Shown here: positions 21,619 through 43,273 of the stretch, piece by piece
Layout of the letters: each line of letters begins with the position of its first letter
How positions within the stretch are numbered: position 1 is the stretch's first letter
Source of the DNA: Thermoanaerobaculia bacterium
GTDB lineage: Bacteria > Acidobacteriota > Thermoanaerobaculia > Multivoradales > Multivoraceae
DNA length: 64,000 nucleotides
NCBI GenBank assembly: GCA_963664405.1
Contig: OY761158.1
Span: 544,001 to 608,000 of the forward strand
Direction: 5' to 3'
Program-made: the position numbers and the translations under genes
Notes under the pieces: generated by a model
What the model was told of the DNA's origin: nothing
The model's database searches: none
What the model saw: the letters and a program-made list of their open reading frames with translations, nothing else

Positions 21619-23853
21619 TCAGACCACCTCGAGCAGCGCCCCGTCGTCTCGCCTCGCGACCACTCTCCCGATCCTCGCGACAGGTGTCGCCGCAGCAAGA
21701 GACCTCGACAGATCGGGCACCAGCCCGGGATCGACCCCAAACAGGAGCCCACCCGAAGTCTGCGGATCGAAGAGGAGCTCCAGGCGTGGATCCCCAGTGA
21801 GCCTCGGCTCCACCACGATGCCCCTACGAGCGCGCTCGTTCTCGGCATGAAAGGTACTGCGCAGACCTCGGGCGAGAAGCGCCTCCGCACCCTCGAGAGC
21901 AGGAAGGCTGTCGAGCTCCACCGAGCTGCTGGCACCGCTGGCACGAAGCATCTCGCCCAAGTGACCGGCGAGCCCGAAACCGGTCACATCAGTTGCCGCC
22001 TCGACTCCGTAAGATCGCAGCACCTCGAAAGCCGCTGCGTTGCTTTCGAGCACCGAGAGCAGAGCACCCTCCAGCCAGCGGCCCCGGGCCAGACCTTGCA
22101 TGTCACTATGGAAGATCACACCAGTGCCCAAACGCTTGGTCAGGAGCAACTCCTGTCCCTCCCGCAGTGCGTCGAGCCGAAAGAGCGCAGCCTCCGATTC
22201 CGCAAAGCCATCGACCGAGAAGCCCACCATCAATCGAGCTGCCGTCGTGGTGTGGCCGCCGAGAAGCCGAACCCCGAGTGCCCCGAATGCGGCCCTGGCT
22301 CCCGACAACGCCTGGAACAGGATCTCTTCCGCCTCCACGCTGTCGCTGCTCTCAGGCACCGCAACCAACGCCATGGCGTAGCGCGGTCGCACACCCGTCG
22401 CCAGTAGATCGGAGGCAGCGTTTACCGCCGCCGCTCCGCCAACAGACCAGGCGTCATCCGTAAAGGCGCTGAACATGTCGACACTGGTGGCAAGCAGTTG
22501 GCCCCCGGGCATGCGCACCGCCGCTGCATCGTCGGCGCTATCGAGGCCGAGGACGACATCGCCATCGCCATCGCCATGGTCAGGCCCCACTCGCTCCAAT
22601 GCGCGCTGAAGCACGGTCTGCCCCACTTTTGCAGCGCAACCGCCACATAGCATCGACATCTCGCGGTTCATTGCCGGGAACTCCTCCGAGAGCTCTCCCT
22701 CCCTGCTCAAAACCTGAAAACGACGCATGAAGCGGCGATCAATCCAGTCCTTCAACCGCATCACCCAGCGCCCCTCGAAAGAGAGCCTCCACTTACTACC
22801 AATGGCAGTCCCGTCGCCGAGATTGAGCAAGGCAAGGAAGTCGGACTGCGGCCGATACCGGCGCAGCTCACCCTCGTCGAGGGCGGCGCGAAGGTTGTCG
22901 ATCAGATAGGGCCCCTGCCGAACCGCATAGACCCCGGCCTTCGCCGTGCCGGGGTGGTCTCGCAGCGTCGCGCAGTCGCCCACGGCGAAAATATCGTCGT
23001 GGCCATCTACCTGTAGGGTTGGCCGCGCGCACACAAAGCCCTGGGCGTCCACCGTCAGCCCCGAGCCGGCAAACAGGCCATGACCTGCGGCACCCGTGAC
23101 CCAAAGCAGAAGGTCGAAGTCGACCTCGCCTCCCCCCTCGAGCAAGACCCGACCCTCCTCCGCGGAGGCGACCTTGGCGCCGCAGCGAACTTCGATACCG
23201 CGAGCCTCAGCCCGCTCCATCACCCGCTTCACCAGACTTGGTGGCGAGCCCAGCAGGATCCGATCTTCTGCGTGCAGCAGAACGATCTCCACACCTTCAA
23301 GCCCCTCCCTTTGCAGCCGGACCTGAAGGGTGAAGGCCAGCTCGACACCGGCGACGCCGCCCCCCACCAGTACGGCCCTGAATCGGCCGGACTCTGCGTC
23401 CGCGCTTGCGCGCTTCACCGCCGCGTCGACAGAGTGAACAAAGCGGCCGATGGGACGCGTCGGCCGGGCGTATTCCCGCACTCCGGGCAGGTCGAGTCCG
23501 CGCACTGTAGAGCCGACATCGAAAGACACCACATCGTATGGAACCGGCGGACGACCGACGAGGAGCACCTTCTTCTCCTCAGGGTCCACGCCTTCCGCGG
23601 GCGCGAGAATCACTCGAGCACCGGCACGCCGCGCCAGAGGCACTACGTCGATCTCGAGCTCGTGCTCGTCGTACTGACCCGCGACGAAGCCCGGGACCAT
23701 ACCGGAGTACACCGCGATCGGCGTGTCGAGGACCACCGTGATGCGCGTCGCCGCCGGCGGCGCCATCGCGAACCGCCGTAGCACCTGAACGTGGGTGTGC
23801 CCGCCGCCGACGAGAACCAGCTCTCGCATATGAGTCGGAGTGACCAAATCCAC
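21619..23853 (-). CDS. selD: selenide,water dikinase fused to an N-terminal pyridine nucleotide-disulfide oxidoreductase
   Basis: LVLVGGGHTH, FAVGDCA, KAGVYAVRQG; CGGCAAKVG, DDAA, GGHT, ATDVTGFGLAGHLGEM, DPQTSGGLL. Confidence 0.93.
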   Translation of the reverse strand: MDLVTPTHMRELVLVGGGHTHVQVLRRFAMAPPAATRITVVLDTPIAVYSGMVPGFVAGQYDEHELEIDVVPLARRAGARVILAPAEGVDPEEKKVLLVGRPPVPYDVVSFDVGSTVRGLDLPGVREYARPTRPIGRFVHSVDAAVKRASADAESGRFRAVLVGGGVAGVELAFTLQVRLQREGLEGVEIVLLHAEDRILLGSPPSLVKRVMERAEARGIEVRCGAKVASAEEGRVLLEGGGEVDFDLLLWVTGAAGHGLFAGSGLTVDAQGFVCARPTLQVDGHDDIFAVGDCATLRDHPGTAKAGVYAVRQGPYLIDNLRAALDEGELRRYRPQSDFLALLNLGDGTAIGSKWRLSFEGRWVMRLKDWIDRRFMRRFQVLSREGELSEEFPAMNREMSMLCGGCAAKVGQTVLQRALERVGPDHGDGDGDVVLGLDSADDAAAVRMPGGQLLATSVDMFSAFTDDAWSVGGAAAVNAASDLLATGVRPRYAMALVAVPESSDSVEAEEILFQALSGARAAFGALGVRLLGGHTTTAARLMVGFSVDGFAESEAALFRLDALREGQELLLTKRLGTGVIFHSDMQGLARGRWLEGALLSVLESNAAAFEVLRSYGVEAATDVTGFGLAGHLGEMLRASGASSSVELDSLPALEGAEALLARGLRSTFHAENERARRGIVVEPRLTGDPRLELLFDPQTSGGLLFGVDPGLVPDLSRSLAAATPVARIGRVVARRDDGALLEVV

Positions 23854-42577: not shown

Positions 42578-43090
42578 CTACTCGCCGCGAAAGTTCAAAT
42601 CGGAAACGGTCCGGCCCATCATCTCGCGAATGCTCTGCCGCAGCTCCTCCGGCGTCGGTCGACCGACGAAGTACCAGCCGTTCCAGATCCGGTGGATCTC
42701 GAGGCTGGGCAGCAGTGCAAAGGTGAAGGGCACCGGTAACGGACCGTGCCGTTTGTCTGTGGTCTCGCGAATGCCAAGCTCGTCCGTCAGGCGAAGCTCC
42801 TCGTCGCTCAGGAACGGAAATCTCGCGCCGAGGCCGCAACGAAAAGCCTCCTGCACCCGCGGTGGATCGACCGAGATCGCGGCGACGCGGCAGTACGCGA
42901 CCTCGCTAGATTGGTGGAACTCGACCAGCTCCCTCAGCTGCAGCTGTCACTTCGGTCACCACGGCCCTCGATAGAAGGCCAGAATCAGGGGATTGCCGTC
43001 GGCAACCTCTGCGATGGAGACTGTCTGGCCCCGATCGCTGGTTAGAGGAAGCGACGGGAAGGTGTCACCGACATCGAGCCGTAGAGACAT
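42578..43090 (-). CDS. AhpC/TSA (peroxiredoxin-like) redoxin with two in-frame TGA codons, putative UxxU selenoprotein (170 aa)
   Basis: MSLRLDVGDTFPSLPL...LILAFYRGPW-TGA-PK-TGA-QLQLRELVEF...AISVD...FPFLSD...GRPT is one continuous frame. Confidence 0.8.
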
Positions 43091-43273
43091 GAGAAGTTTT
43101 TGAGGGAGTTTCTGTTTCCACAACCGGCGATCAACTCGAAACCGAGTAGATCGGCTCAGAACCCACCTACAGTACCGCATGACCTGCGTAGCGCGATTAC
43201 GTCAGCTGAGAGGATCGCCGAGAGCGGCGTTCTACTCCTTGCGATGCACCTTGGCGTATCGTTCGATGCCGTC

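Follow-up and report, generated by a model that had tools for sequence, protein, structure and literature searches.

On the minus strand of the window, i.e., the stretch of 64,000 nucleotides from a Thermoanaerobaculia bacterium that was analyzed and to which all positions refer unless another source is named, positions 42578-43090 very likely constitute a real gene encoding a thioredoxin-fold redox protein with two selenocysteine (Sec, U) residues, as judged from comparative sequence data. The explanation that fits best, and in which we place good confidence, is a 170-residue cytoplasmic peroxiredoxin (Prx)-like thiol:disulfide oxidoreductase, where Sec45-Pro-Lys-Sec48 would form the redox motif and a single SECIS element (hairpin B below) would serve both Sec codons. 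The features to which the text refers are the following.

42578..43090, minus strand: region encoding the Prx-like selenoprotein, 170 codons and a TAG stop, with codons 45 and 48 for Sec
42956..42958, minus strand: UGA1 (codon 45), at the N-terminal, helix-capping position of the thioredoxin-fold CxxC motif
42947..42949, minus strand: UGA2 (codon 48), whose residue is part of the first turn of helix alpha-1 and aligns with the Cys of solved BCP/PrxQ proteins
42935..42946, minus strand: hairpin A, CAGC-UNCA-GCUG, with a 4-bp stem, immediately downstream of UGA2 and 9 nt downstream of UGA1, of presumed role
42916..42932, minus strand: hairpin B, putative SECIS, GGAGCU/GGUCG/AGUUCC, stem of 6-7 bp and 5-nt loop at 42922-42926
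21619..23853, minus strand: Pyr_redox_2-SelD fusion gene, Cys-type and selenophosphate-synthetase-like, 744-aa frame, belonging to the selenium-use trait, about 19 kb from the Prx-like gene

The coding sequence was read as one frame of 170 codons that is closed by a TAG stop. It starts with ATG at 43090-43088, a start Met whose equivalent is shared by six full-length orthologues; the product begins MSLRLDVGD, and the redox site reads LAFYRGPW-TGA-PK-TGA-QLQLRELVEF. The same frame and the same coordinates of the two TGAs had been given in an earlier note made from the letters alone. With Cys put in place of Sec, the product matches the Pfam families AhpC-TSA (PF00578; 68.9 bits at a cut-off of 26, residues 7-116) and Redoxin (PF08534; 46.9 bits), and both matches span the two TGAs. 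An in-frame ATG is also found 30 codons upstream (43180), from which a 74-aa table-11 open reading frame (42956-43180, minus strand) extends to UGA1. No obvious Shine-Dalgarno sequence precedes the ATG at 43090, and a leaderless transcript is possible.

The genome, a single 6.78-Mb contig with 62.6% G+C, harbors a complete set of the components for which a search had been proposed, i.e., SelA (343.6 bits), SelB (63.5 bits, within a frame of 669 aa) and tRNA-Sec (72.4 bits, with anticodon TCA as assigned by ARAGORN), which together with SelD all score above the curated cut-offs. The tRNA-Sec gene is found outside the window, where a tRNA gene search gave none, and an Rfam search of the window gave no match at gathering thresholds. 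The genome holds two selD genes, a Sec-type gene with one in-frame TGA outside the window (G000:C1:388007-388930) and a Cys-type gene inside it. The earlier note was correct in that a selD gene is present in the window (TIGR00476, 242.9 bits at approximately 21727-22650, minus strand, without internal stop), but this gene is the Cys-type fusion form, while the Sec-type selD resides elsewhere. Its Pfam domains are Pyr_redox_2 (residues 12-306), AIRS (441-547) and AIRS_C (564-737), and the fusion resembles the Ndh-SelD fusions that are described in a section of the GOS paper (PMC2398784).

In this genome TGA is the commonest stop codon of long frames, where it ends 1461 of the 2795 frames of at least 400 codons; the code is therefore standard, and reassignment of TGA to a standard amino acid was ruled out on this ground. 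The genome contains 27 AhpC/TSA matches, 16 of which carry one TGA, in each case at the redox site (types WUPxC, TGGU, WUGC, GUIFC and TUPPF), and the gene at 42578-43090 is the only one of the 27 with two. With at least 17 Sec-containing genes of the AhpC/TSA type the host is unusually Sec-rich, which is itself notable. Examples of the single-TGA genes are located at G000:C1: 824886-825257, 1587591-1587992, 6177850-6178221 and 1582530-1582976, and several are found in open frames of 386-441 aa, which suggests fusions.

Homologous DNA was collected from 201 genomes of the phylum, from genomes of named species (18 loci) and from metagenomes (49 loci), and the motif was scored in 96 loci (L011-L106). 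Two of the rows, L015 and L021, belong to genomes that are unpublished (G152 and G024, respectively); they were counted and placed in the tree, but none of the claims depends on them. The orthologous clade, in which sequences are 61-90% identical, comprises 17 loci with U-PK-U and four with U-PK-C. The remaining loci display U-GK-C (3), U-PK-D (7), C-PK-D (10) or C-PK-E (36), or belong to a paralogous group that is 29-37% identical and carries U-P[YFWX]-C (12) or C-P[YF]-C (3); four of the 96 gave no motif.

Codon 45 is TGA in all 21 orthologous loci, and at codon 48 these loci have TGA (17), TGC (three, two of which are copies in one genome) or TGT (one), such that homologues with Cys or TGA at both sites, which the earlier note had proposed to look for, were indeed found. 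Counted over the 19 distinct clade sequences, codon 48 is TGA in 16. That two chance nonsense mutations are an unlikely origin of the TGAs, as had been argued from the single sequence, agrees with the recurrence of both in homologues from other genomes and from metagenomes. In more distant subfamilies the position of codon 45 is occupied by Cys or TGA. At the position of codon 48, Glu or Asp is found in 53 of the family proper's 77 loci (C/U-PK-E/D). The proposal that the two TGAs are located exactly at the positions of the AhpC/TSA WCPxC motif thus holds for the redox site as such, but not for a family-wide Cys at the second position, where the wider family has Glu/Asp.

Selection on the reading frame was assessed from 171 pairs of the 19 full-length clade sequences (a partial sequence, L063, and a duplicate, L037, were left out). 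At a mean pS of about 0.6, codons 1-44 have a mean pN/pS of 0.41 and codons 49-170 one of 0.30, and these low ratios on both sides of the TGAs indicate that both flanks are translated in this frame. The earlier observation that the redoxin fold continues for about 120 codons is borne out by the 122 codons that follow UGA2, by their pN/pS and by the PF00578 match across both TGAs. Residues that are invariant in 28 aligned family members include R41, G42, C/U45, K47, D75, D96, P121 and R155.

In a tree of 66 family sequences, which leaves out the paralogous group, rows of fewer than 150 residues and exact duplicates, the clade with U-PK-[U/C] has a support of 100/99; the joining of the U-GK-C and U-PK-U groups may be a long-branch effect, according to a warning of the tool. 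The Cys variants are found in two places, i.e., L012 and L013 beside the U-PK-U sequence L014, and L042 beside seven U-PK-U rows, a distribution that may reflect either two losses of Sec from a UxxU ancestor or three gains. In a soil-type subfamily (L053, L079-L087, L091-L093 and L105, of which L053 is labeled Blastocatellaceae), U-PK-D and C-PK-D alternate among very close relatives; here the second position is Asp, and the form is a single-Sec one. The orthologues L041-L046 (61-90% identity) are labeled as an Acidobacteriota MAG (90%) and as Acidimicrobiales/Actinomycetota MAGs (61-72%), and SAR324 cluster names are found among shortened protein relatives (P0033, P0095 and P0108). The mixed phylum labels of the orthologues would be explained either by horizontal transfer or by uncertain binning. 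No conserved gene context was found around eight orthologue loci. A FAD_binding_3 monooxygenase adjoins the orthologue in two of the eight (L043 and L014), and an Ala_racemase_N/D-Ser-dehydratase-like gene in two (L012 and L014, of one genus); in the window, the upstream genes on the same strand are of the glyoxalase and APH families.

The window was also compared with contigs of four runs from four studies (X1, X4, X8 and X12). A search for RNA runs that contain the stretch listed none. Contigs of X1 and X4 are identical to the window and may be its source; X8 and X12 contain related contigs that differ in 15 and 9 letters, respectively, none of them listed within the two TGAs. X1 and X4 also contain a second contig, which is diverged (aligned with window positions 42915-42988) and where the plus strand has G instead of T at 42947, such that codon 48 becomes TGC. 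The presence of this copy beside the contig of the window implies that Sec-Sec and Sec-Cys forms co-occur in one community. The diverged contig, of about 4.6 kb, is the more abundant one (depth 14.8-18.5 compared to 7.3-5.9 for the window's own contig).

Two hairpins follow the TGAs, and both were recovered by RNAalifold from the alignment of the 19 distinct clade sequences. The four pairs of hairpin A are the same in each of the 19 sequences, whereas its loop varies between G, U and A at alignment position 24; the energy of this hairpin is -3.0 to -4.3 kcal/mol. Hairpin B has six core pairs (alignment positions 33-38 with 44-49) that form in all 19 sequences and a seventh, outer pair that forms in nine. 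One of its pairs is compensatory (GC in 10 sequences, AU in 9), another is GU, AU or GC (12, 4 and 3) and a further one GC or GU (18 and 1); the 10/9 split follows two subclades and may represent a single event. The loop residues G40 and U41 are invariant in the 19 sequences and are also part of a conserved Val codon.

The bacterial SECIS (bSECIS) consensus, in the form given in the legend of Fig. 2 of PMC13188914, has a loop of 3-9 nt, a stem of 4-16 bp, a G in the first two loop positions, a distance of 16-37 nt from the UGA to the loop and a minimum free energy (MFE) of at most -7.5 kcal/mol. The stem of hairpin B starts 14 nt after UGA2, and its loop follows at 20 nt from UGA2 and 29 nt from UGA1, i.e., where the earlier note had placed the hairpin at 42916-42932. 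Loop, stem, G and both spacings fit the consensus in all 19 sequences. The proposed compatibility with a bSECIS therefore stands for these elements, but not throughout for the energy limit, which hairpin B alone reaches in 11 of the 19 sequences and misses in eight, and which the region comprising both hairpins reaches in all 19. Folding energy as such was dropped as evidence for a SECIS: an 81-nt region folds no better than its shuffled versions (z = -0.45; its energy is equaled or surpassed in 52 of 200 shuffles), and Cys homologues have hairpins downstream of the Cys codon that are just as strong or stronger (mean energy -12.7 kcal/mol for the Cys-type CxxE sequences, n=30, compared to -9.1 kcal/mol for UxxU, n=16).

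Synonymous variation offers a more telling test of the recoding signal than energy. The eight 12-codon windows with the lowest synonymous variation in the gene start at codons 44-51, and over codons 46-60 the synonymous codon entropy is 0.85 bits compared to 1.30 bits expected, a value reached in 0.07% of resamplings, a rough figure given that the sequences are related. The test was stratified by amino acid, and 8 of 11 codons were usable (K47, Q49 and Q51 were dropped because they have no comparators); in the Cys-only WWCPKE clade the same test gave 0.66 compared to 0.75 bits (18%). For the 17 other Sec codons of the genome, the loop of the best consensus-type hairpin is found 16-25 nt downstream. 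Three WUPYC paralogues have a GGUCG loop with the stem starting 14 nt and the loop 20 nt after the UGA, i.e., the geometry of hairpin B relative to UGA2. These paralogues (G000:C1:1587591-1587992, 6317090-6317512 and 6329917-6330318) have VFYRSVVWUPYCRTQL as their common Sec context and GCAACU-GGUCG-AGUUGC as their SECIS hairpin, identical in the three, and look like recent duplications.

The data above raise the question of whether hairpin B acts alone. A more elaborate version, in which the two hairpins form a composite element for both UGAs and the diselenide center has arisen stepwise from Glu/Asp via Cys to Sec, is conceivable but unlikely. Here, hairpin A would either be a minimal SelB site of its own or, when folded at the ribosome entry, shorten the path from UGA1 to hairpin B; the ribosome, upon reaching UGA2, would melt hairpin A, which would leave hairpin B at the standard distance of 14 nt (stem) and 20 nt (loop). 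The diselenide would have arisen at the position equivalent to the peroxidatic Cys in a family that otherwise has a single Cys or Sec. If true, such a stepwise origin would provide a set of natural variants in which to study the contribution of a second Sec.

The same protein could also be made with the help of tandem elements, such that UGA1 is served or assisted by hairpin A, which follows it at 9 nt, and UGA2 is served by hairpin B, which follows it at 14 nt; we regard this arrangement as quite unlikely, even though several observations fit it. The pairs of hairpin A are invariant in all 19 sequences while its loop position varies freely, and the Leu52 codon is fixed (entropy 0 compared to 1.56 bits at 12 other conserved Leu codons). 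Single-Sec relatives and paralogues have stems 8-14 nt after the UGA, which is the placement of hairpin A relative to UGA1 and of hairpin B relative to UGA2, and in the sister U-GK-C group a hairpin is located 11 nt after the UGA, where hairpin A resides here. The 29 nt from UGA1 to the loop of hairpin B are, in addition, an outlier with respect to the 16-25 nt of this genome. On the other hand, hairpin A has no more than 4 bp and an energy of just -3.0 to -4.3 kcal/mol, the distance of 13 nt from UGA1 to the start of its loop is below the consensus minimum of 16 nt, and its invariance could in part reflect codon preference, as there are no other conserved Gln codons for comparison. Orthologues that have only UGA1 (L012, L013 and L042) keep hairpin B fully paired, which is expected if hairpin B serves UGA1 and argues that it can act at 29 nt.

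That Sec is encoded by UGA1 alone, with UGA2 either acting as a stop that leaves a peptide of 47 residues or being decoded by a molecule different from Sec-tRNA, is very improbable. Two closely spaced UGAs should lower the yield, and 4 of the 21 orthologous loci have a Cys codon in place of the second TGA. However, the 122 codons past UGA2 are under purifying selection in frame (pN/pS 0.30) and complete a single thioredoxin-fold domain, hairpin B is located at the standard distance of this genome from UGA2, and codon 48 is kept as TGA in 17 of 21 loci at a pS of about 0.6 and alternates with Cys codons alone, which is the usual signature of a Sec site. It is hardly conceivable that the gene is not functional, whether as a pseudogene that has acquired two nonsense mutations, as the product of an assembly error or because the organism uses TGA for a standard amino acid. 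Gene callers do treat it as broken (the best 120 of 328 matching proteins start only past the TGAs). However, 16 further loci from separate genomes and metagenomes, as well as contigs of other studies, carry both TGAs, purifying selection acts on each flank, and more long frames of this genome end with TGA than with any other stop.

In the preferred reading, i.e., two Sec residues and one SECIS, both UGAs would be decoded by SelB and Sec-tRNA(Sec), with SelB recruited by hairpin B within the coding region. The loop of hairpin B is at the usual distance of this genome from UGA2 (20 nt) and at a long distance from UGA1 that is still within 16-37 nt (29 nt), and the ribosome would use the hairpin twice, three codons apart. 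An AlphaFold2 model built from a 28-sequence alignment (pLDDT 89.4, pTM 0.86) has helix alpha-1 at residues 46-65, such that Sec45 caps the helix and Sec48 is found in its first turn. Sec45, the N-cap, would then be the attacking nucleophile, and Sec48, one helical turn on, would resolve the intermediate to form an intramolecular diselenide that would be recycled by a cellular reductase system; this cycle is suggested by the geometry of Sec45 and Sec48 in the model together with the precedent of selenoprotein L (SelL).

A search of proteins gave 328 matches, of which the best 120 (P0002-P0121) have 95-137 aa, cover at most 71% of the query and all start after the second TGA, which indicates that gene callers stopped at the same place; some of these 120 are named hypothetical protein, peroxiredoxin or redoxin domain-containing protein. 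The gene and its clade are thus systematically misannotated, with the best 120 of 328 relatives shortened and no NCBIfam model for the subfamily. Two-Sec redox motifs in bacterial proteins are catalogued, and the literature search found no bench study of the PF00578 type. The natural series U-PK-U, U-PK-C, U-PK-D and C-PK-E could show what is gained by a diselenide over a selenenylsulfide or a single Sec. As a recoding case the gene is clean, with UGAs 9 nt apart, one consensus SECIS and an invariant extra hairpin, and it bears on how far SelB reaches.

A family named "Prx-like thiol:disulfide oxidoreductase" (PF00578, UxxC/UxxU, one or two Sec) is listed in sections of two reviews (PMC9312934, PMC13188914), both of which cite a 2004 study of the prokaryotic selenoproteome, and the second of which files the family under "predicted with high confidence". 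The same sections list UxxU also in mercuric-reductase-like and FmdB-like proteins, such that the earlier statement that UxxU is known mainly from SelL was too narrow; in a section of PMC2398784, UxxU is found in a different family, Prx-like 2. The window protein shares with the PF00578 Prx-like selenoproteins the common domain, Sec at the start of helix alpha-1, the UxxU variant and a function that is predicted only, and its membership is supported by the PF00578 score (68.9 bits at a cut-off of 26) and by U45-P-K-U48 at the redox site. It differs from the classical group with FYRGxW-U-P[YFW]-C, to which it is approximately 29-37% identical and which is represented by paralogues in the same genome and phylum, in that it belongs to a separate subfamily, RGxW-[U/C]-PK-[U/C/E/D], where the second position is mostly Glu/Asp. 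The literature search found no paper on the U-PK-U subfamily. In two GOS supplement files WUPKC is found 14 times and WUPKU never, and the main texts of BSepDB (PMC13326102) and deep-Sep (PMC12013277) mention no Prx-like proteins, proteins with two or multiple Sec or the phylum, while their supplements may list such entries; sections of PMC2874816 gave nothing pertinent.

Among solved structures, the best folds found by Foldseek were Bcp4 (3hjp, TMq 0.82), BcpB (5epf), ResA (3c71) and AhpE (1xxu), with identities of 15-22%. Proteins of the BCP/PrxQ and AhpE type (3hjp, 5epf, 2cx3 and 1xxu; TMq 0.74-0.82, identity 17-21%) are the closest, and 5epf (E = 2e-4) and 2cx3 (E = 5.5e-4) are the only sequence matches in the PDB, both weak. 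In ungapped HMMER alignments to these two, Arg41, Sec45 and Sec48 are matched with Pro, Thr/Ser and Cys, respectively, which are the catalytic PxxxT/SxxC residues of peroxiredoxins. The canonical BCP/PrxQ motif is thus not present, with Arg41 in place of Pro and Sec45 in place of Thr/Ser, which argues for an oxidoreductase of the CxxC type rather than a canonical peroxidase. At the position of codon 48, BCP/PrxQ proteins have Cys, whereas most of the wider family has Glu/Asp. A likeness of C-PK-E to the C-P-T-E of typical 2-Cys peroxiredoxins was considered and dropped in favor of the ungapped register with 5epf and 2cx3. Proteins of the ResA/TlpA type (1su9 and 3c71, TMt 0.82-0.87) are similar in having a W-C-x-x-C-type motif at the N-terminus of a helix, but the NCBIfam ResA model gives 16.8 bits at a cut-off of 170. 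ResA and TlpA are membrane-anchored and extracytoplasmic; in contrast, the translation of 42578-43090 displays no N-terminal hydrophobic segment by eye.

The arrangement of the window protein recalls that of SelL in the thioredoxin-fold, Prx-like architecture, the two Sec two residues apart and, as proposed here, one SECIS for two Sec, and a 2007 PNAS paper on SelL is said to describe a bacterial SECIS that lies within the coding sequence and serves both UGAs. The protein is, however, not a member of SelL: the SelL-related NCBIfam model NF040769 gives 32.1 bits at a cut-off of 120. This is the best of the NCBIfam models, none of which reaches its cut-off on the product, and it matches all 28 aligned family members weakly (best E = 1.3e-10). 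AhpC-TSA_2, presumably the Pfam family of SelL, gave no match at E <= 0.01 in the Pfam search of the product. According to sections of PMC3541580 and PMC2397514, SelL is a diselenide protein that occurs in aquatic organisms, among them fish, invertebrates and marine bacteria, and that has one SECIS for its two Sec. Two-Sec proteins of the PF00578 type are thus rare but catalogued, SelL is the precedent for a diselenide, and the present gene adds a member; less expected are the Glu/Asp at the second position in the wider family, the truncation of all of the best 120 of 328 matching proteins and an invariant mini-hairpin between UGA1 and the putative SECIS.
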